A DNA stretch of 32,000 bases. It comes from an uncultured archaeon (lineage in GTDB: Archaea; Asgardarchaeota; Thorarchaeia; Thorarchaeales; Thorarchaeaceae). Positions 1 through 15,795 of the stretch are shown here, piece by piece. How positions within the stretch are numbered: position 1 is the stretch's first letter; each line of letters starts with the position of its first letter. The notes below the pieces were generated by a model, which was given only the letters and a program-made list of their open reading frames with translations, ran no database searches and was not told where the DNA came from. A program made the position numbers and the translations under genes. The stretch spans positions 1-32,000 of the forward strand of contig CAYHAA010000017.1 in NCBI GenBank assembly GCA_964354495.1. The letters are read 5' to 3'.

Positions 1-201
1 CAACTCTAGGTACTGTATGAACACACTTTCAGTCTGCACGCCTCGGACATTAGTAGTGGTGAGCTGAACACCTCGCCGGAGCTTGGTACTTACACCCCCA
101 CCCTATTAACCTCGTCTTCTACGAGAGTCCTCGTTCCTAGACTCGACGTTACTGTCACCAGTCGCATCGTCTTTTACAGATCGTCTAGCAAGTGGATATC
201 T
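1..201 (-). repeat. Direct repeat copy A: displaced 3' end of 23S rRNA plus trailer (probably continues left of the window)
   Basis: 1-137 aligns to 12657-12793 with 2 mismatches (88, 108). 188-201 (gcaagtggatatct) aligns to 12877-12890 (gcaaatggatatct). The interior differs. Confidence 0.95.
32..201 (-). pseudogene. 23S rRNA 3'-terminal fragment with a short ES39 variant
   Basis: Homology to the 3' end of the intact 23S. No upstream rRNA sequence beyond position 201. Confidence 0.85.
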
Positions 202-420
202 TTGACCCATTTCCACAGTGTGAGTGAACTAACTGTGAGAAACTTCTATGTTCCACCCTTCCCTTGCTCGTGTCACCACTTCCTACATTCCAATGGAATG
301 TAGAATTAGCAAGAGCTTTGTCAACTATCATCGGGATGGAATCCCTCCTGAGGACCGGGCTTCGTTCTCCTGTGTTGATATTGGTTCATCACTTCCAACC
401 ACAGAGAGAGTTTCCATAGT
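202..420 (-). ncRNA. Putative TnpB omega-RNA scaffold (5' limit unknown)
   Basis: Position at the tnpB 3' end/right end. Stems ctacattcc(283-291)/ggaatgtag(295-303) nested in cttgct(263-268)/agcaag(308-313), plus the terminal hairpin 214-237. Confidence 0.5.
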
Positions 421-1980
421 CTTTGCCACGGCGAGGTCATCATCACTCATCTTGGAGTCGTCACCGAAACCAAGAAGGTCCTTCTGGACAAAGTGAATAG
501 CCGCGGACTCTCTAGAACCTGATGTTGGTTCCTTCGCAGAGAGTAAGGACTTCCCATGAGAAGGTATCTTCTTTCGGGCTTTCAGTCGTGAGTGTTTCCC
601 TGCTTGTACAGAGTCTTCCCACTTACCTAGTCCTCTCACAGAGTGCAGTGACTTTGTGAGCGTGATGAGGCGTCCGGCAATGTTGATGGCTCCATTCCTG
701 TCTGCATTGGTCTTGTGACCACACAAAGGACATCGAAAGTAGTTCTGTTTTGGTCGTACCCCCTTTGTACCGCATTTCCAACACATGATGGATGTCCAAG
801 CTTCAGGCACTACTTGGAATCTCGATTCTTTTCCTTCAGTGGTCCATCCTCTTTGAGCCAATCCATGTCTGAAACTGTCTGTGATTCGTGCAAAGGCCCA
901 AGAGTGAATCATTCCTCTAAACTGTCTTCCTTTGAAATTCCCTTTCCGAGCCACAATTCGAATATTCTTCAAGCGACCAATCGATACATAGACTGTATAT
1001 CTCCCTGAGAGTTCCTCAATGTAGTTTAGGAGGTTCCTGACTAGAATACGGTCATACTCTCGAGCAATATTCTCACGTCTATGCCGAATTTGTCGAAGCT
1101 TCTGAAAGACCCCATCTAGGTCATCTTTTGTGAGAGTCTTTCGTTGAAGGTCAGCCACGAGCTGGTCGTATCTCTTGATGATTTCGACCTTGTCCTTCTG
1201 TTTGAAGTATCTCGTTTCACCAACCTTCTCAGGAGTGACCAATGTTGTACAAGCGGCTTTCTCAATACCCAAGTCTACTCCAAGAACTGCGGGAGGAAGA
1301 GATGTATCAGGAACTTCATCTATGGTAACGCTAACTGCAAAATTGACCCACCACTTACCTGAACGGTCGGTGAAAATCTGACATGCCTTTACTTCACCAC
1401 GATGAAACTGGTTGACATGGAATGGGGACACTTTCAGAGGTATGATCAGTCTATCATGAAATGTTCTTCCTTCAGGAACAGAATCTAGAGAGTTCCGAAG
1501 GTTGAGCTGCCACCCAGAGTAATGTTCAAGTTTGAACCGTTGATTAAACACCCATCGAGGAATTCTTCTTGAGAAGTTAGTCCTGGTGGGTCGAGAAGCA
1601 TTCCATCCTTTCTTATCTCTCAGTGCCAAGTAACTCTCATAGAGAGCAACTGCTGTCTGCCTACACTCCTGCAGCTCATTGGTTGAAATTCTTGGGAATC
1701 TCTTCTTTATGTCATGGGGAACAGACGGTCTTTGACCATACCCGGCTTTTGTTTTGAGTGCGGTCATCGTGAGCTCGTCTAGTTTTCCATCATGAATCCG
1801 ATTTTTGTTACGACCTGTCAACAACTTGTTTTCATGTTGTTCAATTATTCCAAGGAATGCACGAATCACTCTCGTGTCCCTTCCAACAATCTGCCTCAAT
1901 CTCTGTTGAGTTCGTTGTGTCATCGACTCCCACTTTATTGGGATTTTAACACTGATTGTTGTTCCACGGGACCGAGCCAT
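328..1980 (-). CDS. tnpB: TnpB RNA-guided endonuclease with rearranged RuvC (550 aa)
   Basis: RuvC-I LGVDLG, RuvC-II IGRL (Gly for Glu), VPEAWTS, CWKC/CPLC zinc finger, RuvC-III NADRNGAINI. Confidence 0.92.
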   Translation of the reverse strand: MARSRGTTISVKIPIKWESMTQRTQQRLRQIVGRDTRVIRAFLGIIEQHENKLLTGRNKNRIHDGKLDELTMTALKTKAGYGQRPSVPHDIKKRFPRISTNELQECRQTAVALYESYLALRDKKGWNASRPTRTNFSRRIPRWVFNQRFKLEHYSGWQLNLRNSLDSVPEGRTFHDRLIIPLKVSPFHVNQFHRGEVKACQIFTDRSGKWWVNFAVSVTIDEVPDTSLPPAVLGVDLGIEKAACTTLVTPEKVGETRYFKQKDKVEIIKRYDQLVADLQRKTLTKDDLDGVFQKLRQIRHRRENIAREYDRILVRNLLNYIEELSGRYTVYVSIGRLKNIRIVARKGNFKGRQFRGMIHSWAFARITDSFRHGLAQRGWTTEGKESRFQVVPEAWTSIMCWKCGTKGVRPKQNYFRCPLCGHKTNADRNGAINIAGRLITLTKSLHSVRGLGKWEDSVQAGKHSRLKARKKIPSHGKSLLSAKEPTSGSRESAAIHFVQKDLLGFGDDSKMSDDDLAVAKTMETLSVVGSDEPISTQENEARSSGGIPSR

Positions 1981-2232
1981 CGTTTACCAACCTTATAAAT
2001 TTCTGACCCGTTTCGGCCAGTCGAGTTCACTCCCCTACTTGTTTACAATAGAGGTTATGTACTCATATTTTCTCTATTACCGAACCTTATAAATTTATTA
2101 AGCAGAAAGAGCTCATAATACTTTATTTGCTATTTAAAAGTCATATATTGCTTTATTTCATTAAAATAGATATTCGTATTGAACTCTAAATCCTTATAAA
2201 TTATTGATAGATTTTGTTCAAGAGGTAAGAAA

Positions 2233-5200
2233 ATGGGTCGCAGACCGAAGACGTTCCAACCAAATGCAGTCCTTCAGTCTGCAATCTATTCGGGACTTGC
2301 AGCTTTAGCACGTCTAGCACGAGGACGAGTCCGAAGTAAGAAGAAGAAATACTACAAGAGTATTGAAAAGAACTGGATGAAAGCCTGGAAGAAGTGGGAA
2401 GAGTCCAGACTACTTGATCCCTATGACTTCTCATCTATCCAGAATGCAGAACCAAACCTTCGAGGTGCCTTTCTCAATCTACTATGGCAGTCAACCAGGC
2501 GTTATGGTAACAGAGAAAACAAGAGAGTGTACAGCTGGTTGGAGGGTACCGTTGGACCACTCAACGCCTTACTGAACTATGCAGGTGCCCGTCTCCGTGA
2601 CCTTGCCCTAACACACTATCAGTTTCCAGAGCCAATATATTATGAAGTCAGAGTCTATGATAAGATTACCACCAAGGTTTTTCCCAAGAATATAGCCAAG
2701 TTGTATCCTGATCCTAATGCGGTCAAGACATACAACAAGGCTGGCTATCCAGGAAACCAGTTCGGTCCTAGAATACTCTTGGCTCATCCCACTCTCCCTG
2801 GAATGGACTTTGTAGACATGATTCGTGCCCACCTCGTCGAGCTCTGCAAACAGCTCTTCATCTACAACGTCCCGCGTACTGAGGCACACAGGTACATCAG
2901 ACTTCTCATCCACAAGCTCCGACCGTACCTCGACTGGGTATATACTCAAGGAAGGACAGGTAAGAAGAACTTCAATCCTGAGAGCGACAGGGAACTAAAA
3001 GAAATCGTGAATGAAACAAAGGCATTTCATGGAAAGAATGTTGGTCGACACAAGTCAGTCACAGAAACAATAGAAGGTAGTCAACTGCCAGACACTATCA
3101 AAGAAGTGAGAGGGGAGATCGAACAAAAGCTCAAGGAAACAAGGGACAAGACAGAGAAAAAACGCATCAAGGAGATCTTGGACCAGATAGACCAAGAGAC
3201 CCTACAGGACAAAGACGCTCAGATACTCAGGGACCAAGTGTTGAGTTTGAGTCAGCAAGAGGGTAATTATTGGCATAGGATACTACTTTCAGACCTGCAT
3301 CATCCAGCCTCTCTAAAGCAGGTAGTCTTTGCAGGGGACAAGATGCTTGAAGAACCATCACCAGTTTTGATTGTAGGAGAGCTACCAGTAGAAAAACGAA
3401 CAGGACAGATCGATATCACATTCTTTCTCAGAAGAGAGATACCGGGACAGACCATTATGACCCCCATACTCATTCTAGAGATAAAGAGCAAGACTGGGTT
3501 CAGCTATAACCTCTATGGAGTCCGAACAAGGAACAAGAAGAAGAAGGATTATGGACCAAGACTGTTTGCATGGAAGAGGAAACTCAATGATCATGAATGG
3601 AACGTAATATCAAAGGCAAAACCACTGAAGGACACGATGGACCAACTCGATGCATATGAAACAATATTGTTGCAGGAGTATAGGAGTCTAGTTCCTTCAG
3701 ATCCCACTCCTCCAAAAAAGTTGTGGAAAGGTGTCATTGTATTAGACACAGATCAGAAACCTTTGGATGTCTTTGATGCATTCTATGACCTGCTGGATGA
3801 ATTGGTCACTGCTCTGGTCAATGGCATGGTCGACTCCAGCAGTCTCACTTCGTACATCTCAGACCCTAACAGTGATCTCAGAATGGCCCTCATTCTGACT
3901 CCATCTGAGGGGCCTTCTGAACTCGTACAGCAGATGAGCCCTCCTGAAAACATTACAGAAGAAGATCCATTCCAAGACCGGGTTTCGGACGATAGGATAC
4001 TCACACTCTATGTGTCTGTCCCCTCTTCAACCTCTTCTGGAAACGCAGCAGCAGGGATATCGACGAACTGGCATCTCATTCACCACATCAAGGATTGCAT
4101 TGAGAAAATGTCAGAGAAAACGGAGGTCTACTGGTTGGACCTTATGGGTACCTACAAAGAGATCGAAACGGAATACTCTGAGAACCAAAAAGATGCAGAT
4201 GAATCTGATGACAGGGAAGATGAGCGAATCCACCTCATCAACAAAAGGTTTGGACTTGACAAGATGCTGAGGGAGAGAGAAATATCTCGGAGAACTCACA
4301 GACGATTGACGGATCTTCTTAAGAGAATTAAGTTCGTGGACTTGAGCTCTGAGATAGACTCCATCCTCCTTAAGAACGAAACCGATTTCTCAGAAATCGT
4401 CGACACTGTTCAGTCCAATGTTCCTTCAGACAGAAACACTGAGAAAATCATTGTCCTAGATGGTTGGTCAGAATTCGCAAATCTGGTTTCAAGGGAACAC
4501 AGACCATTAGTGAGTGGTCTTGAACGGACCTTCCTCGATGTCCTTCCAGAGAAAGACACTGAATTGATTTGGATAGACAGTGGGGTTTCTCACACACGGA
4601 TGAACCCGACATATCAGCGGACGTGTATCCGACCCATACCACATGATTCGCACCGAAGGAAACATCTGGACGAGATTATATACAACATACCAACAACCCC
4701 ACGTGTCTTTGGTTGGCAGACTCCTAGAAGAGAGGATATTCGTGTCATCATCCAGGACACACCGACCTCGGCAGACCCATGGTCGCAGATCATTGATGTT
4801 CCCCTCCTCAGGAATATGACAAGGAAAGTTCGAGGTGTGTCAAAAAGAGATGGACTTGCGTCAGATGATGGCTTAATACAGCCAGCTCACTTTACGCCGA
4901 TGTATGGTAGAGGAATCACACTCTCAACTATAGCTACTTCTATGTACCCCCTGACAGAAGACACAGTTGAACAGATCAAGAAAGATTCGGTGACACTGAT
5001 TCCCAGCACCATCAGGTCAAGAAGGAAGGAACCTGAGGAAGAAGTAACTGAGGTTGATGAAGAGGAAGAAGAGGCCAAGAGGGAAATAGACATTCATGTT
5101 ATTGCTTCGCCATCAAAGACCTTTTCTCTAACGAGACGATTGGTCTTAGATCCAACACACCCACCTCCACCTCATCCCAGGGCACGAGAGCAGTATCATG

Positions 5201-7941
5201 AGGTAAAGAAAATCAATAGAGCCTGGTGTTATGATAGTTTTCCAGTAGAGGAGGAAGAGGAAGACTATCCGGTTTTGAAACCTCCACTTATCGAGTTGAC
5301 CACCAGTCAAGAAATCGATACAACGACGTGTAGGGAACTGGAACTGCGGCGGACTCTATATACAGCACAGTATCTGATGAGGAAACTTCCCTCCTATGAA
5401 GACCTGTATCACTGTTGTGAGAGGATTGTCAACACAGTTTCCCCGATTCTGAAGAAAAAGAGGGAAATGAAGACTGGGCTGGTATTACTCCGCCTCCTTA
5501 AAGATGTGCGGAGTCTAATTAGGGAGGAGTCGGGGAGTAGACAGGTCTGGGAAACACTACTTCCAATGAGGAAGGACCTAGTCACACTCCTAAACTCCGA
5601 AAACAGGAAGTCACTGGAAGACACGCTGGCACAGAACTCAGATGTCCTCGAACTTTATGGCAACAACCTATTCCTTACAATGTGTGCCACTATGGATGAG
5701 CTTCTATCGGAGGAGGCTCTGAGGCCTGCAATGGCCATTCAGCTCTGGTCAGCCATAGCACAGTGGGTTCCCTATCAACTCGGTTTCAAAACGCAGTCAA
5801 CCATGATCACATCAAAGTACGACTTACGGGCAATCCACTCAGACCTCCGTTTGAGGATCAAGTCACTAGTGAATAGGGTTCCAGTAATCCAAAGATTAGA
5901 GATCCAAAACTACGGACAAATGCTATGGTCTGAAGAAGAGGGAATCTTCTCGTCGTGGATCATCTTTCCCAGCGCAGAAGAGATGGTAGGAGGATATGTC
6001 ACAGGACTTGGAGAACCATTCCTCCGTGCCAAGTGGTATGACTGTGTCAAGGATGCGGGAATGCAGAAGTTCTCTGCAAGAAAAGCAGCAAGTTCTACTA
6101 CACGTACTCCGATAATGACCCAACAGTATGGGAGTGAAACCATTCTCTGGGTGTTGTGTGAAGATGATGAGGAAGCAGGTTTGTTTTGGCTTCCCTTCAT
6201 ACTTGAGTATCCCTCGAGTAAGAATGTGCTGTTACCTTGGTTCAAACTCTCAGAACTGTCTTCTTCATCATTCGCAGAACTGCAACCCCCAACCTCTGTG
6301 GAAGTCCCTCCGTATACTGTGAGGAACATTGACAGGTTCCTACAGTCTGTTATTGAAACGACTAAAGACCCTATCGAGGTGACCTGTGAGGTATCAATAG
6401 ATCTTGAGAGTAAGTTGTTTCAGATTGACTTCACTCAAGGTGGGAAGATCATTGAAACCTTCAAGTGCAAGGAAACCTACAAACTCCTTCGGACTCTCAG
6501 ACATCCCATCAGGACTGGTTTTGGATATGAAACATCAAGTGGAAACCTGTTGACATGGGACCACAGAAATGATATCGAATACCATGATGTGACAGTGAAG
6601 AGAAACGATGGGAGAAAAGAAACCATCTCCCTTACTCTTCTCAAACCCTTCGTCCATCGAAGCAGGTTCTTTCCTGACGAATACAGCATTCCCAAGACCT
6701 GTAGTGAGCTGTTGTCCACAGAAGAGTGTGATATGTTGACATTATTATTCGTGCCAGAGGACTCCAGCTTCAGGTCAATAAGATTGGAGTTTGATGGACT
6801 CCCATCTGGTTCTTCTTTGCATGCCCTTGAAACTGTATGCATGAACATCTATGATGTTGCGCTTTTGACAGAGTGTGAGCAGCTGGTTGATACGGCGAGA
6901 GGGACTCGACACCGTATGGATATCAACGCTAAAGGACTCTTTGATCTCCAGTTCTCTAGGCTGAGCGACTACCCTCGATTGCAGGAAGCAATCAAAGATT
7001 TGGATATTAGTGACTATGACTGGTCAAGAGACCCGTGGACAATCAAAATTGACACTACCATAGTGAACAAGAACGAAATACGATGGTACCTAATGTCCGG
7101 GTCTGGAATGGTATGGCAGAAGAAGGTGTATGACTTCGTCATGGATTACACACTCAGCATTAACGAGGTCATCAATGAATTTGAAGAGGTGGTGGACAAG
7201 ACTATCCCTCTGAAGCACATCTCAGGACTCTCAGAAGTCATTGCTAGCCTGAGGAGTACACTTCGTGATCAGGGTTGGAGAAAGGGAAAGCCGCGATGTA
7301 GGATCATTCTTGAGGAAAGGGGAGGAGGGTATGTAGCGGTGGTCAATAGGCTGGGACCAAAGAGAATTTCGACTGAGATTGACAGCTTTCCTATTGATAT
7401 GATGATTGATGAGGAAGTCTTGAGTGAAGAGTTGGGAGGAGAGTGGGGACTTCTTTCTAGGTTTGATGTGGTGAACTTGGAGGAGTTCTATGAGGCTGTT
7501 TCCATTGCCGCATCTGGAGTTGAAATGGAAGACAATAGTGACAGCGAGCTTGATGAGGAGGCTGAGTTGCTCCAAGTAATCAGTGAGTGGAGAGAGGAGA
7601 AGAAGCATCCCTTTGCGCAGAGATTTCTTGGTGAAACTCTTGCGCAACTAGCGAGTCTTTACTTATCACAGAATAGGCTCCTTGAAGCATTGAATTTTGC
7701 AGAGGAATCTGTAAATATTCTTCAAGCATGGGATGAAGGTGGTCCAAGTGTCAGACTATCCCTAGCAAGAGCTTTTGCTGTGAAAGCAGACGTCTTCCTG
7801 ATTGAGAAAAGGGACATTTCTGAGGTCAAGAGTCTTCTACAGAAAGCCCATGAGCAGATTGGTTCATTAAAGCCTGACATTAGTGTTTCGAAAGTTAGTA
7901 AGTGGATAGAAAAGTTATCAAGAAGAGTCAGTAGTGAGTGA
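2233..7941 (+). CDS. Giant hypothetical protein (1902 aa): PD-(D/E)xK nuclease motif, degenerate RecA-like NTPase, C-terminal TPR-like helices
   Basis: Uninterrupted 5.7 kb ORF. GELPV..QIDITF..ILEIKSK motif, EVYWLDLMGT and KIIVLDGWSEF strands, TPR-like LAQLASLYLSQNRLLEALNFAEES. Confidence 0.8.
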   Translation: MGRRPKTFQPNAVLQSAIYSGLAALARLARGRVRSKKKKYYKSIEKNWMKAWKKWEESRLLDPYDFSSIQNAEPNLRGAFLNLLWQSTRRYGNRENKRVYSWLEGTVGPLNALLNYAGARLRDLALTHYQFPEPIYYEVRVYDKITTKVFPKNIAKLYPDPNAVKTYNKAGYPGNQFGPRILLAHPTLPGMDFVDMIRAHLVELCKQLFIYNVPRTEAHRYIRLLIHKLRPYLDWVYTQGRTGKKNFNPESDRELKEIVNETKAFHGKNVGRHKSVTETIEGSQLPDTIKEVRGEIEQKLKETRDKTEKKRIKEILDQIDQETLQDKDAQILRDQVLSLSQQEGNYWHRILLSDLHHPASLKQVVFAGDKMLEEPSPVLIVGELPVEKRTGQIDITFFLRREIPGQTIMTPILILEIKSKTGFSYNLYGVRTRNKKKKDYGPRLFAWKRKLNDHEWNVISKAKPLKDTMDQLDAYETILLQEYRSLVPSDPTPPKKLWKGVIVLDTDQKPLDVFDAFYDLLDELVTALVNGMVDSSSLTSYISDPNSDLRMALILTPSEGPSELVQQMSPPENITEEDPFQDRVSDDRILTLYVSVPSSTSSGNAAAGISTNWHLIHHIKDCIEKMSEKTEVYWLDLMGTYKEIETEYSENQKDADESDDREDERIHLINKRFGLDKMLREREISRRTHRRLTDLLKRIKFVDLSSEIDSILLKNETDFSEIVDTVQSNVPSDRNTEKIIVLDGWSEFANLVSREHRPLVSGLERTFLDVLPEKDTELIWIDSGVSHTRMNPTYQRTCIRPIPHDSHRRKHLDEIIYNIPTTPRVFGWQTPRREDIRVIIQDTPTSADPWSQIIDVPLLRNMTRKVRGVSKRDGLASDDGLIQPAHFTPMYGRGITLSTIATSMYPLTEDTVEQIKKDSVTLIPSTIRSRRKEPEEEVTEVDEEEEEAKREIDIHVIASPSKTFSLTRRLVLDPTHPPPPHPRAREQYHEVKKINRAWCYDSFPVEEEEEDYPVLKPPLIELTTSQEIDTTTCRELELRRTLYTAQYLMRKLPSYEDLYHCCERIVNTVSPILKKKREMKTGLVLLRLLKDVRSLIREESGSRQVWETLLPMRKDLVTLLNSENRKSLEDTLAQNSDVLELYGNNLFLTMCATMDELLSEEALRPAMAIQLWSAIAQWVPYQLGFKTQSTMITSKYDLRAIHSDLRLRIKSLVNRVPVIQRLEIQNYGQMLWSEEEGIFSSWIIFPSAEEMVGGYVTGLGEPFLRAKWYDCVKDAGMQKFSARKAASSTTRTPIMTQQYGSETILWVLCEDDEEAGLFWLPFILEYPSSKNVLLPWFKLSELSSSSFAELQPPTSVEVPPYTVRNIDRFLQSVIETTKDPIEVTCEVSIDLESKLFQIDFTQGGKIIETFKCKETYKLLRTLRHPIRTGFGYETSSGNLLTWDHRNDIEYHDVTVKRNDGRKETISLTLLKPFVHRSRFFPDEYSIPKTCSELLSTEECDMLTLLFVPEDSSFRSIRLEFDGLPSGSSLHALETVCMNIYDVALLTECEQLVDTARGTRHRMDINAKGLFDLQFSRLSDYPRLQEAIKDLDISDYDWSRDPWTIKIDTTIVNKNEIRWYLMSGSGMVWQKKVYDFVMDYTLSINEVINEFEEVVDKTIPLKHISGLSEVIASLRSTLRDQGWRKGKPRCRIILEERGGGYVAVVNRLGPKRISTEIDSFPIDMMIDEEVLSEELGGEWGLLSRFDVVNLEEFYEAVSIAASGVEMEDNSDSELDEEAELLQVISEWREEKKHPFAQRFLGETLAQLASLYLSQNRLLEALNFAEESVNILQAWDEGGPSVRLSLARAFAVKADVFLIEKRDISEVKSLLQKAHEQIGSLKPDISVSKVSKWIEKLSRRVSSE

Positions 7942-8301
7942 CCCTACCTCACTTCTGTCGATGAAGATTAAAGGTAGTAAGATAGTAAGTTGAGGAATGT
8001 CTATTAGTTTCTACTCCGAATCAGGTAAAGATTGGTATCGCCCCATACTCCAATGCGCTCCTCCTCTGGAAGTCTGTCCATAACAAGTAGAGCCCATCTG
8101 ATGTCATGAAGGAGACCTCAGCTTTCGGATGGAATCTTCAACGATTAATGGACCTTAAATAACTCGTCATCATAGATGCATTTTTCTGGGCGACTTGGAC
8201 TGAAACCCCACATACAGACATACTAACAACAGAGCAACGGGATATGGGAAGCCTTGAGTGAAGTATAAAAGAGACTGCTAGAAAGATGATATCGGAGGGA
8301 A

Positions 8302-9303
8302 GTGACGTTCAAACCATACAAACTCAGTAAGGATGCTATATCGGCAGTGAAGCAGATAATAGGTTATAGAAGTACTCCGATGGAAGACAGACCACAAGTA
8401 GAAGATATGTTTCATACATCATTTGGAAAAACACTTGGTAGTCAAGTTGGTGAAATTCTAGATTTTGCAAAGAGAGGACAAATTCTCCTAATAATACTTC
8501 CACTCACTAAAATCATAGAGAAATTACAGAAATTCATTCAAGATGGAAGTTATCTTAAGGCTGTGGAAAGCGCTCTATCACCCAAAGACATTGATAAGAT
8601 GAAGGCCTTTGAGGTTGTCATGCAGGATGTCGATGTTGGGGACACTGTAGACACTGTGGAAGAATTGATAATCCAAGACGATGAGCTCTGGTACCTGTCA
8701 TTGATAACATTTACAGTGTATGCGTATGTGGATGTTTACTCGAAGAGTCTAATCAAAAGTCTGACATCAAATCCACTACTGATGCAGAAATTAGAAACAT
8801 ATCTTGAAAGAGAAGCGCTTCATAATAAAGACGATATAGAGAGAAAATATGTCACATCAGTTACAGATCTCTCGCAGTATGGAGTTAGTCGGAGGCTTCG
8901 GACCATAGAAATAGGTCTGTCAATAGACCGGATTTTATCTGAGGTTACAAATCAAGATATTCTTAGCATAATTAGAAGTAGCTTTATCAAAATCATAAAA
9001 ACAAGACATGAAATTGCACATAGAGATCCAAAGTTGAAAAGAGATGACTACACATATGAGATGTTTGAGGATATTTCAAACGCTGTCGAGGAATTGGATT
9101 TCACTTTTAATGAGATAGAAGAAATGTTTGGTTTTTTGAAACCAATATTCGGCACAATCGAGGATCTAGGAAAGCAGACAATGGATAGAATTAAGAGAAC
9201 TATGAATATTGCCTACATGACAGTGCTGTATCCAGCATTAATTGATGTAGTAGTTCATGATTTGGTAACTTGCACAACTAGGGATTCACATCACACAATG
9301 TGA
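8302..9303 (+). CDS. HEPN-domain protein (putative RNase/toxin)
   Basis: Helical protein with an intact Rx4H motif (KTRHEIAHRDP). Confidence 0.75.
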   Translation: MTFKPYKLSKDAISAVKQIIGYRSTPMEDRPQVEDMFHTSFGKTLGSQVGEILDFAKRGQILLIILPLTKIIEKLQKFIQDGSYLKAVESALSPKDIDKMKAFEVVMQDVDVGDTVDTVEELIIQDDELWYLSLITFTVYAYVDVYSKSLIKSLTSNPLLMQKLETYLEREALHNKDDIERKYVTSVTDLSQYGVSRRLRTIEIGLSIDRILSEVTNQDILSIIRSSFIKIIKTRHEIAHRDPKLKRDDYTYEMFEDISNAVEELDFTFNEIEEMFGFLKPIFGTIEDLGKQTMDRIKRTMNIAYMTVLYPALIDVVVHDLVTCTTRDSHHTM

Positions 9304-9628
9304 TAAATGCAGAGTAGACCTATGACCTATTAGAGAGATGCGAAAAATCGAGATAGAGTATGCAACAGGAGATAGGACAACAGACTACTACTATTCCTGT
9401 GTTTCAGAAGATGGGGCTATTGTTTTCAAGCCAGAACCTATCACTATCAAAAGCCTAATCAATTTAACTTCAAAGTGCTAATTGCCATCATCCATCTCGT
9501 TCGTTGTGAATGTTCCACATTGTAAAGCATCCAAGGATTCCTAACCCAATATCATGGTCAGTAACCATAGAGCCATAGTGGGACGTCCCAAGGTTGTGTG
9601 TGCAAACTTCCAATTGTTCTATTGAACC

Positions 9629-10822
9629 TCACCATCTCCAATTGTCTACATGATAATCCCACAATCCAACACACATTTTCAATGATTCGCGAATTCGAAG
9701 CTTATCATCTTCTGATTTACAGCTTAAGAAGACTTTGTATAGATGAGGAACCGTTACAAGACAAATCTTCAATTGTTCTGCCATCTTCACAACCGAATCT
9801 TCGTAAGCTTTTGATAAATCACGGTCATTCGGATGAATATGGTACCAGGGATTGAGAATGAATATTCCCCTAATCTTCTCTCGATCGTCAATTAAATACT
9901 CTAACACTTGACGAAATTTCGTCTTCCCCAGACTGCCTTTTTTTCCAGTACACTCAATTCTTGCTTTATAGTCACCATCATTAATCTCGATATCTTCTAA
10001 CCACTTAGTTTCCTTATATTCTGCATGAAATCCTAGAGATTGAAGGATAGTAGTAACCTTGTGTGAGAGAGAATGACCATGATCAGCAAGAATACTCTTC
10101 TCTTTTTCGATTTCATCTAGCTTATTCCTTATGTCGTGCAGTTGACATCTGAGCTTCTCTTCATCACGAATGAAAATAGAATCAAGCCAGGATGGTCTTT
10201 CGTGGGATGGATTCCAAAAAGGTGGTAGGATATTTTCAATAATCTGCTTCAAGTAAAAAGACAACATCTTCCTTGATGATGGATTTGATTCATTTAGCAT
10301 AATTTGTCTTGTGGGCGGAATAATCAATAATCGACCTTTCCTATGTTGATAGACCAGTGAAATACAAGTTCCACCTACTCCCTGCATTAGAATATGGGCA
10401 GTTGAAGGAAGTGGGTTAAATTCAACAGAAGATACGAGATTGTTTTGCAGTCCAAATAAAAATGATTTGATCCAATGTGGTTGTTCCTTATGAAACCGCA
10501 CTTCTGATTCATTAAGATAACGTATCGATTTCCCTAGACTTTTAACCCATGGTAAGAAGTGATAGTTTGAAATCTTCTCAGAAACCATCTTTGGTGGTGC
10601 GCTAACGACAACTAGAATTCCTCCATTGTCTTCAATGAAATCTATTATGTTGATAATTCGAACAATCGTTTCTTCATCATAGACCTCGTTCAGGTTGAGA
10701 ATGACTACATCATCAGATTCCATTTCCAGTGATTTCTCAGGAAATTTTGAATGCCAACTATATCTAATTCCCAACCCGTTTTGAGGGCTTTCTCCGAAAC
10801 CAATGATTAGAAGATTCGGCAT
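9629..10822 (-). CDS. GATase/ThuA-like N-terminal domain fused to a restriction-endonuclease-like C-terminal domain
   Basis: IIDFIEDNGGILVVVS motif, coiled-coil linker, and LQSLGF..EDIEI..ARIECTGK..FRQVLEY resembling Mrr-like PD-(D/E)xK domains. Confidence 0.6.
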   Translation of the reverse strand: MPNLLIIGFGESPQNGLGIRYSWHSKFPEKSLEMESDDVVILNLNEVYDEETIVRIINIIDFIEDNGGILVVVSAPPKMVSEKISNYHFLPWVKSLGKSIRYLNESEVRFHKEQPHWIKSFLFGLQNNLVSSVEFNPLPSTAHILMQGVGGTCISLVYQHRKGRLLIIPPTRQIMLNESNPSSRKMLSFYLKQIIENILPPFWNPSHERPSWLDSIFIRDEEKLRCQLHDIRNKLDEIEKEKSILADHGHSLSHKVTTILQSLGFHAEYKETKWLEDIEINDGDYKARIECTGKKGSLGKTKFRQVLEYLIDDREKIRGIFILNPWYHIHPNDRDLSKAYEDSVVKMAEQLKICLVTVPHLYKVFLSCKSEDDKLRIRESLKMCVGLWDYHVDNWRW

Positions 10823-11055
10823 TATATCAACTCCTTACACACAGATGTCAATTCTTCTATAAGAGGAATATCTCTCTTATCATTAGCTGTTGGTCTGGCA
10901 CTTGAACAAAAGTGCTAATGTTCATGTGTTTAGAGATATTGTCCAGCTTAGAATTAACAATGCAAGACTAGATACACATCTGTATGCCTTGTAACACCTG
11001 AAGTACATAGCTTCGTTCTCTGCAAGTGTTTCATTGGTCATTGTGATTTCCTCCA

Positions 11056-12213
11056 TCAATCATAGTAGTCATCTACGAATGTGTTGTAACCATACTCCCC
11101 AAGATAGGGAGAGTGTCCATCTCGTTCAAGTTCTTCGAACTCTTCCTCAATCTCGTCCACCTTGCCAAGAGCGTATTCATGCTCTGGATCATGGACAAGT
11201 GCTTCTAGATACATGTCCAGTGCATACTTCTTAAGCCCAGCATCATAGAATAGCTGTTCCTGTTCACAGATGATATTGGGGTCTTTCGGGTCCAAGGCAA
11301 AGGCTCGATTGACGGCATCCTCATAGAGGTCATAATTAGTGTGTACCTGTGAGAGTTCGTACCAAGCCTGAGCATCCTTGGGCATGAGTCGAGTTGCCAT
11401 CTCAATGCACATGATGGTCTCCCATCGTCGGTCGTATCTCTCAAAGACATCTGCAAGGACGACCCATGCTCCAAGGTCATTTCTCCCAATATCGAGAGCG
11501 TCACGGATCCTACGTCTCTCTGTCTTACGCTTACTCTTGGGACCTTCTATTGATGATTGAAGGAGAGATAAGGCATCCTTTGTTCTATCAAGTCGGAAGA
11601 GGATGAGGCCTAGAGAGAATTGTATAGTCAGCTCTTCAGGTGCAAGTGTGCGTGCCTCCTGCAGGAGACCCAATCCCTCTCTCTCTTTGCCCAGTTCTAC
11701 GAGGGCTAAACCAAGGAATTGGAGGGCACGTGGTGTTATTTTAATCTCTAGAGACTTGTCAAGAGCTTCCTTACACTCCTTCCATTTCCTTTGAAAATAG
11801 TACGCTACTCCTACCTCGGTCCAGTGATCAAAAATCTCAGGTTGAATCTTACATGCTTTTCCGAAGGCTTGACTAGCATTATAGTATGCATGTTCTATCA
11901 TCTCGATTATTCCTAGATGGAACCAGGCGGCACTGTTCTTTGGATTGAGTTAGGTTGCATTCTTGAGAACTACATCGATGTTGTGCCATCTCTCAATCTC
12001 CATACATCTTCTTGCATAATGCAGGTAGGCTATGGATGTCTTTTGCTTCTTTCTTGATCTTGCTTCTAGTTCCTTGGCTTCACCGAATAGTTCCTCCGGA
12101 CTCGATAGATAGATACGCTCAACCTCTTCTTCATCAAGTTCCAGACCAGTATAGGAGTTTACATCCCATGATACCCACATCAGCTCGTTTCTCCACAGAA
12201 TAAAGGTACACAA
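11056..12213 (-). pseudogene. TPR-repeat protein interrupted by an in-frame TAA (11950-11952)
   Basis: ORFs 11950-12213 and 11056-11901 are in frame. The 16 intervening codons (LNPKNSAAWFHLGIIE) continue a TPR motif. Confidence 0.75.
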
Positions 12214-12641
12214 GAATAGTTAGATGTTGTTTCAAAGCCACATTGCTTACAATATGATTCTAATAGATGTGAAACGGTTTTAGACTTCGTTAATACACTA
12301 AATCGAAATTATGAAGAACACTTTATGAATTTGCGACAATTATAGGTTTTATTGAGAGTTCTTAGAGTCCTAATTTGCAAAACTCCAGTTTTTCAATCTA
12401 ATCAACCATTCAAACCTTGAGTTCGAATCCTTTCACTGTGATCTCGTAGGGAATCACATCCTTCGAGTGTATAGCTACTCGCCATTTGATAGTGAATACT
12501 TGAGATGCCCCTTCTGTATAGTAAAGCAAATTCTCCCATCCTGTGATTGGATTGTGACTACTGGATATTAGGATTAGGAATCACAACCCTAACCTCTCTT
12601 CTTATATTAGAAAAACAGACAACAGGGGATGGAAGTACTTT

Positions 12642-12666
12642 AACAAAACCCCTAGACAACTCTAGG
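12642..12666 (-). terminator. Hairpin plus T-tract downstream of 23S
   Basis: cctaga(12651-12656)/tctagg(12661-12666) followed on the minus strand by GGTTTTGTT. Confidence 0.5.
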
Positions 12667-12687
12667 TACTGTATGAACACACTTTCA

Positions 12688-15794
<3,107 letters not shown>

Positions 15795-15795
<1 letters not shown>

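Follow-up and report, generated by a model that had tools for sequence, protein, structure and literature searches.

Genomic islands are said to integrate into the 3' ends of tRNA and tmRNA genes and to restore the gene with a copy of their own, as Williams reportedly described in 2002. In bacterial 23S rRNA, intervening sequences (IVSs) occur sporadically in helices 25 and 45 and are cut by RNase III, which leaves the rRNA fragmented. The common view of expansion segments is that they record ribosome evolution through slow accretion and vertical inheritance, and ES39 of Asgard archaea has been used in arguments about the origin of the eukaryotic ribosome. Mosaic rRNA genes are known, and interoperability has been described for 16S rRNA (PMC6677816). 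In Asgard archaea, ES39 joins H98 to a variable arm Ha and a conserved arm Hb in a three-way junction; it is reported as 50-60 nt in Thorarchaeota, and its size is treated as a lineage trait that grows by accretion (Penev et al. 2020; PMC7594248).

The DNA analyzed here (the window) is 32,000 nucleotides long and forms the first 32 kb of contig C17 in a 3.3-Mb metagenome assembly of a Thorarchaeaceae archaeon (51 contigs, 97.7% complete; genome G000). Window position 1 is the end of that contig. The sole intact 23S rRNA gene found by an Rfam profile search of all contigs lies on the minus strand at 12687..15795 (RF02540, 2482.9 bits, model 1-2987) and carries an 85-nt ES39 at 12793..12877. Located 12.6 kb behind this working gene is a 201-nt partial copy of its 3' end on the same strand, copy A, which comprises the last ~170 nt of the gene, the start of the trailer, and 14 nt upstream of ES39. 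Within copy A, positions 1..137 hold H99-H101, the mature 3' end at ~31, and the trailer start; the RF02540 model recognizes 45-134 (68.7 bits, model 2883-2973). Positions 137..188 hold a 52-nt ES39, assigned from its fold and from the intact 23S genes of congeners, and 188..201 hold 14 nt of the H97 3' strand and junction, which mark the 5' limit of 23S homology. Copy A runs off the contig end, and its equivalent of the 3' BHB cut falls between 5 and 6.

The flanks of the two ES39 sequences, called identical in the first-pass annotation, are nearly but not fully so. Positions 1-137 agree at 135 of 137 sites with 12657..12793, the 3'-terminal 23S segment and trailer start on the minus strand (BHB circularization junction at 12661/12662), and homology resumes at 188-201, where 13 of 14 sites agree with 12877-12890. 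These direct repeats bracket ~12.4 kb of inserted DNA (202..12656), which is missing at this site from the sister genome G012 and from the congener G017; the insertion DNA was not found in G012. The 201/202 junction is known from one assembly only. The locus is extended by contig C32 (reversed), whose last 41 nt equal window 1-41 and which farther along shows synteny with what lies behind the 23S genes of G012 and G017. The resulting order is: the 23S gene with the 85-nt (long) ES39; the insertion; copy A with the 52-nt (short) ES39; 1.2 kb; a copy of the last ~49 nt of the gene with a G012-like trailer; 2.4 kb; a further copy at C32 9247-9470; and the conserved flank. In G017 the conserved flank lies directly behind the 23S gene, and in G012 only two small partial copies intervene.

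Like the tRNA and tmRNA islands, this locus has direct repeats that bracket the insert, a displaced fragment downstream, further partial copies stacked behind it, and relatives that lack the insert. Unlike them, it has a 23S gene as target, yielded no integrase in the searches, and includes a divergent, structured ES39 in its repeat; an event of this kind can therefore change the gene product instead of restoring it exactly. The insertion thus appears to work like a target-restoring island, and it is not assigned to that class because the searches found no tyrosine or serine integrase. The locus shares with mosaic rRNA and with IVSs a variable module in conflict with organismal phylogeny and recombination in conserved flanks. 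It differs from IVSs in that RNA contigs run through both ES39 alleles and in that the replaced allele is kept beside the gene. Relative to the Asgard ES39 survey (PMC7594248), the H98 site and the junction are the same and the short allele (50-52 nt here) fits the reported size; the 85-nt Thorarchaeota form and two segregating families are absent from that paper. The first-pass annotation had credited Asgard archaea at large with an enlarged, eukaryote-like ES39, which is true of Loki- and Heimdallarchaeota; the 50-60 nt of Thorarchaeota correspond to the short allele (PMC7594248). Target-restoring islands, mosaic rRNA, and the Asgard ES39 are each known, and their combination is new: the literature searched held no report of ES39 dimorphism, expansion segment exchange, or insertion at the 23S 3' end in Asgard archaea.

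In the RF02540 alignment, the extra sequence of the 23S gene follows model position 2882 and precedes 2883, which places it between H97 and H99. H99 starts at about model position 2887, and copy A aligns from 2883-2885 onward. By this alignment the extra sequence occupies the H98/ES39 site. The stems named in the first-pass annotation read exactly as given: TAGAC (138-142) and GTCTA (183-187) lie 40 nt apart in copy A, and CGAGC (12794-12798) and GCTCG (12872-12876) lie 73 nt apart in the working gene. A 5-nt stem is meaningless by itself, and the weight of the comparison lies in the covariation of H98 and Hb.

When folded, the two alleles adopt one and the same layout, a three-way junction in which H98 meets a 5' arm (Ha) and a 3' arm (Hb). 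H98 consists of 6 bp, CUAGAC/GUCUAG in the short allele and CCGAGC/GCUCGG in the long, and is extended outward by two U-A pairs; at four of the six the alleles differ by changes on both strands, so the closing helix is indeed kept by co-varying changes, as had been proposed. Hb has two helical segments, of 5 bp and then 4 bp, separated by a GG/AA internal loop and capped by a GNRA loop (GUGA in the short allele, GCGA in the long). This arm is homologous in the two alleles and has been re-paired by compensatory changes at up to seven of nine pairs, and the earlier description of the interiors as unrelated is accordingly wrong. Only Ha is extended: it measures 3 bp with a 5-nt loop in the short allele and ~13 bp in three segments with a UGCGU loop in the long, and the length difference between the alleles is confined to it. 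The long ES39 folds at -40.8 kcal/mol (z -2.9).

Both alleles have been shaped by selection on structure, because the covariation of H98 and Hb is strong and the pairs of the long allele are compensated. Across 22 intact genes, 99.7% of H98 and Hb cells are paired and 12 of 17 pairs are doubly changed. The covariation score is 0.619, compared with 0.252 for shuffled alignments (0/500) and at most 0.124 for slid registers. Among six long alleles, 28 pairs are held in common and 12 of these, pairs of Ha included, show compensatory changes, with the UGCGU loop conserved. Taken together, the folds and alignments indicate that selection on RNA structure maintains both allele families.

The suspicion that the short form might be mere decay, never present in an intact gene, is contradicted outright. 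It occurs in the intact 23S genes of 12 of the 14 congeners with the region assembled (G003, G004, G005, G006, G009, G010, G012, G013, G014, G016, G024, and G041), and in 23S RNA contigs; the H98 of these genes is identical to that of copy A and their Hb is nearly identical. The long allele is found in the intact 23S of G017 and of the metagenome contigs L052, L053, L055, and L057, and the partial contig L054 carries the same long allele. These five contigs, recovered by a pattern scan with the long H98 3' strand, show the allele in a 23S setting and represent three or more subtypes. Each allele thus resides in intact genes of different lineages.

The distribution of the alleles conflicts with the relationships of their hosts. 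A tree of two proteins encoded beside the 23S gene (894 columns; all genomes compared are metagenome assemblies) pairs the long-allele G000 with the short-allele G012 at 100/100, and the short-allele G006 with the long-allele G017 at 98/97, the genome assignment of the G006 23S fragment being less safe as it lies at a contig start. The two pairs are joined at 100/100, with short-allele genomes outside. On this tree the ES39 allele requires at least two changes. The AU test rejects a clade of the long-allele genomes G000 and G017 (p 2e-47); this group was named after the identity tables had been seen, which weakens the p-value and leaves the topology untouched. The incongruence holds with G000, G012, and G017 alone, and in each of the latter two genomes the upstream genes, the 23S gene, and the downstream flank lie on one contig. 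When the 600 nt of 23S just before ES39 were used for a tree meant to place the metagenome contigs, no branch was resolved, and from it only the identity of G000 and G012 is used.

That identity locates the change sharply. Over the 600 columns that precede ES39, no difference separates G000 from G012, and their ES39 sequences belong to opposite families. Over the 23S body, G000 differs from G012 by ~1.2% and from G017 by ~4.5%. Passage from long to short by deletion cannot account for the G012 allele, whose H98 and Hb are canonically short and differ at four of six and up to seven of nine pairs, respectively. Two independent origins of the long form are ruled out by the H98 and loop that long alleles have in common. 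With deletion and independent origins set aside, replacement by recombination is required, and ES39, together with the 23S tail, would have been replaced in this way at least twice. The horizontal exchange of ES39 proposed in the first-pass annotation is thereby upheld for the genus: ES39 has very probably been exchanged within it, by whatever path.

Both alleles are also found in transcribed 23S. Circular pre-23S rRNA is a known processing intermediate of archaea. Contigs L052, L054, and L057 are circularly permuted, with the 23S 3' trailer at 12662 joined to the 5' leader at ~15825. The permutation junction lies at the bulges of the leader-trailer processing stem, where trailer ...CAGTACCTAG is joined to leader TACTGTGTCAACAC...; because they are permuted at BHB sites, these contigs are RNA-derived. 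They are probably assembled circular pre-23S rRNA and map the BHB cut sites of the genus. In metatranscriptome run X26, long-type RNA contigs span 12800-12895 with 6-7 changes, and short-type ES39 lies inside 23S RNA contigs of X15 and X26 at a depth of about 500, although all four runs were compared as contigs, from which expression levels cannot be read. In the run labelled 'organism A', a 23S body contig with 1 change in 424 nt is joined to a short allele. In run X25, a DNA contig covers 12682-12880 with zero differences and stops at 12880. Both alleles therefore occur in 23S RNA contigs, a result that pertains to genes with a body and does not extend to copy A itself. The RNA contigs are continuous through both long and short ES39; partial cleavage is possible, as contigs cannot exclude it. 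The insertion has zero cover in all four runs, and among the contigs listed from them none matches exactly across 201/202 or across 12890, a result neutral as to transcription of copy A.

Copy A has no gene body. Two of its letters stand out: window 164 is C, against G in each of the 22 intact genes, and window 108 is T, a letter present in no intact short-allele gene of the genus. It appears to be silent and beginning to decay. Its closest match is the native tail of the sister genome G012 (190/201); the other short-allele genes match at 164-187 of the ~201-206 positions compared (81.6-92.1%). Its H99-H101 pair signature, GU/AC, is that of the working gene, and G012 has CA/UG. The copy at C32 ~9247-9470 is a hybrid whose 5' limit of homology lies within 4 nt of that of copy A. 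Its first two thirds carry a decayed long-type ES39 with a broken apical stem and a UGUGU loop; the remainder, beginning at the conserved Hb block, is a short-type tail free of decay that has the G012 signature in H99-H101. The sequence upstream of this copy had been likened to a TnpB 3' region, a candidate dropped because no TnpB-sized ORF is present there. Many congeners have more partial copies behind 23S, all of which begin 3' of ES39, so the usual junction at this hotspot lies near the very end of the gene.

With moderate confidence, we read window 137-188 as a silent spare ES39, with the long family in the working gene and cassette replacement by recombination as the cause of the arrangement. 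More generally, the 23S 3'-terminal cassette (ES39, H99-H101, and trailer) would be replaced occasionally through recombination with incoming DNA that bears a cassette of its own. Whether the insertion itself swapped the working ES39 is close to an even question. If it did, a long-ES39 cassette with ~12 kb of cargo would have entered the resident gene by recombination where H97 borders ES39 (AGAT|ATCCA). The incoming cassette would have become the tail of the gene, and the resident short cassette would have been displaced downstream as copy A. Gene conversion would then have homogenized the 137-nt repeats while copy A started to decay. One event would cover the insertion, the change of allele since the split from G012, and the retained short copy. 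Consistent with this proposal, the insertion is not in G012 or G017, copy A is nearest the G012 tail, copy A and the hybrid C32 copy have nearly the same 5' limit, and copy A has its C at window 164. The signature of copy A is GU/AC and not the CA/UG of G012, and the swap therefore needs the extra step of gene conversion. The usual junctions of the hotspot near the gene end, the ES39 subtype of L055, and the G017 module without ES39 also speak against it. The link between the long ES39 and the 23S body depends on one contig.

A single-crossover insertion leaves exactly such a picture, and which allele is native depends on the position of the crossover. For a swap, the exchange must fall within the 14 nt that lie 5' of ES39; an exchange within the 137-nt repeat lets the ribosome retain its ES39. 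Homology amounts to only 14 nt on the 5' side and to 137 nt plus trailer on the other, so that ordinary homologous recombination would almost invariably take place 3' of ES39. In that case the long ES39 would already have been native and have reached the lineage by another exchange, and the short ES39 of copy A would have been carried by the element from an earlier short-allele host. Other partial copies at the hotspot start 3' of ES39 in agreement with such a crossover, and a module in G017 (contig C133, L048) joins the final ~64 nt of 23S and its trailer to 110 nt resembling the first 110 nt of the insertion, again with no ES39. The C32 hybrid, a decayed long 5' part joined in the conserved Hb to a short 3' part, shows that junctions or conversion tracts can fall inside the homologous region, and the letters of copy A that are absent from intact short-allele genes (164 and 108) lie in its 5' part. 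This course of events is nevertheless less likely than the swap. It needs a further, traceless replacement of ES39 in the lineage after the G012 split, and it leaves unexplained why an element-borne fragment should be most like the native tail of the sister and why two unrelated upstream sequences should give way to 23S homology at points no more than 4 nt apart.

Assembly error and in-place growth fare less well. rRNA genes are classic sites of chimeras in metagenome assemblies, and the gene body of this organism could have been joined, in conserved 23S, to sequence from another Thorarchaeote that comprises the 3' end, the insertion, and the partial copy. The contrast with G012 would in that event be spurious, and two alleles in one locus would still hold for the other organism. 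The 600 nt identical to G012 upstream of ES39, the position of copy A at a contig end, and the want of an exact contig across 12890 are what such a join would produce. It is improbable given the 41-nt overlap of C32 with the start of C17, the synteny of the C32 flank genes with those of G012 and G017 (diverged as much as this genome should be), the one-contig loci of G012 and G017, an incongruence against short outgroups that is independent of G000, and the variety of signature and trailer contexts, at least four, in which long alleles occur. That no exchange took place at all, the long ES39 having arisen by growth of Ha in place in two lineages or copy A being a decayed long copy, is very improbable, even though Ha is the most variable arm of the Asgard ES39 (PMC7594248). 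The two families differ by coordinated double changes in H98 and Hb and not by an insertion, the H98 and UGCGU loop common to the long alleles of G000 and G017 point to one origin, and copy A is closer to short-allele tails (87.7-94.5% for 11 of 12, 81.6% to the incomplete G009 row) than to the long one (71%). The remaining probability falls to more complex histories.

The gene content of the insertion offers no recombinase as agent. Searches of its ORFs (Pfam, PHROGs, and NCBIfam) and of the ORFs beside the C32 and C15 copies (Pfam) found no integrase or recombinase. The same three profile sets identify a TnpB of 550 aa at 328-1980 on the minus strand. A giant ORF of 1902 aa at 2233-7941 on the plus strand has no Pfam match. 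Profile searches give a weak HEPN match at 8302-9303 and a TPR protein at 11056-11901 (minus strand), and a 397-aa ORF lies at 9629-10822 (minus strand). When the left-hand 23S piece (20 nt upstream of the homology limit) was sought in the insertion, the only match was in the intact gene. An exact-pattern scan of viral_contigs for the 23S 3' end, which detects exact matches only, returned none. The 23S-proximal end of the insertion recurs behind the long-allele 23S of L055, where the downstream DNA is 88% alike. The ES39 of L055 is another long subtype despite this likeness, and ES39 and cargo are thus not strictly co-inherited. Separately, at ~12560-12600 the sequence AAGAAGAGAGGTTAGGGTTGT.ATTCCTAAT follows the trailer T-run and is common to the window, L055, and L048. 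It contains an imperfect inverted repeat, GGTTAGG / CCTAATCC, which could serve as terminator or recombination signal at the proximal end of the insertion.

TnpB is paired with a divergent giant ORF at three sites in the genome (328-7941, C27 7258-13000+, and C6 13608-20000+), with homology continuous through the common upstream region; the two look like a two-gene unit and not like a plain IS beside a chance neighbor. In alignment with the other genome copies, the conserved TnpB element end stops within a few nt of 202-205, so the next 20 nt, the start of copy A, would be the guide. These 20 nt differ from the working gene at five positions (10 and 15-18) and match short-allele 23S genes. It is conceivable, if unlikely, that TnpB guided by the displaced short ES39 cuts un-swapped short-allele 23S genes and spares its host, with repair copying the long cassette and cargo. 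If this were true, the ES39 dimorphism would be an immunity polymorphism, and the element an RNA-guided homing system that targets a ribosomal expansion segment. TnpB ends in this genome do not generally abut stable RNA fragments, an idea considered and dropped: the C27 copy faces an intact tRNA-Gly 3' end (convergent), and the others have no tRNA. A 151-nt RNA-library contig from X15 (3 changes) covers 205-310, from the TnpB stop codon to the element end, and then diverges, in keeping with the element end seen by alignment and consistent with a transcribed guide-RNA scaffold of a related copy elsewhere.

Exchange of ES39 between close relatives would alter how expansion segments are read. G000 and G012 are sister species whose ES39 differ by 33 nt and a dozen compensated pairs, and one of the two genomes holds both forms. 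An expansion segment can, on this evidence, move as a cassette by recombination, which would make its size unsafe as a phylogenetic character at such a scale. Insertion at the 23S-tail hotspot may not merely add cargo but alter the ribosome itself, and natural allele swaps would provide a means to test the function of ES39.

Further irregularities were seen in and around the 23S genes of these genomes. A solitary copy of the 23S tail and trailer, 86% identical, lies at C15 12077-12228 of G000 (L058), remote from any 23S gene and near a class I tRNA synthetase gene and an amino-acid kinase gene. The partial copy of L048 (2821-3168) lies 58 nt after a gene whose G000 homolog (C7 73844-73934) is called tRNA-SeC by ARAGORN. 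Within the 23S gene body, G009 and L055 have a ~780-nt insertion at the same site, 13218/13219, which is missing from the gene of the window. L053 has ~300 nt inserted at 13069/13070, and G025 has ~800 nt further upstream, at about 13745. These insertions are probably introns.
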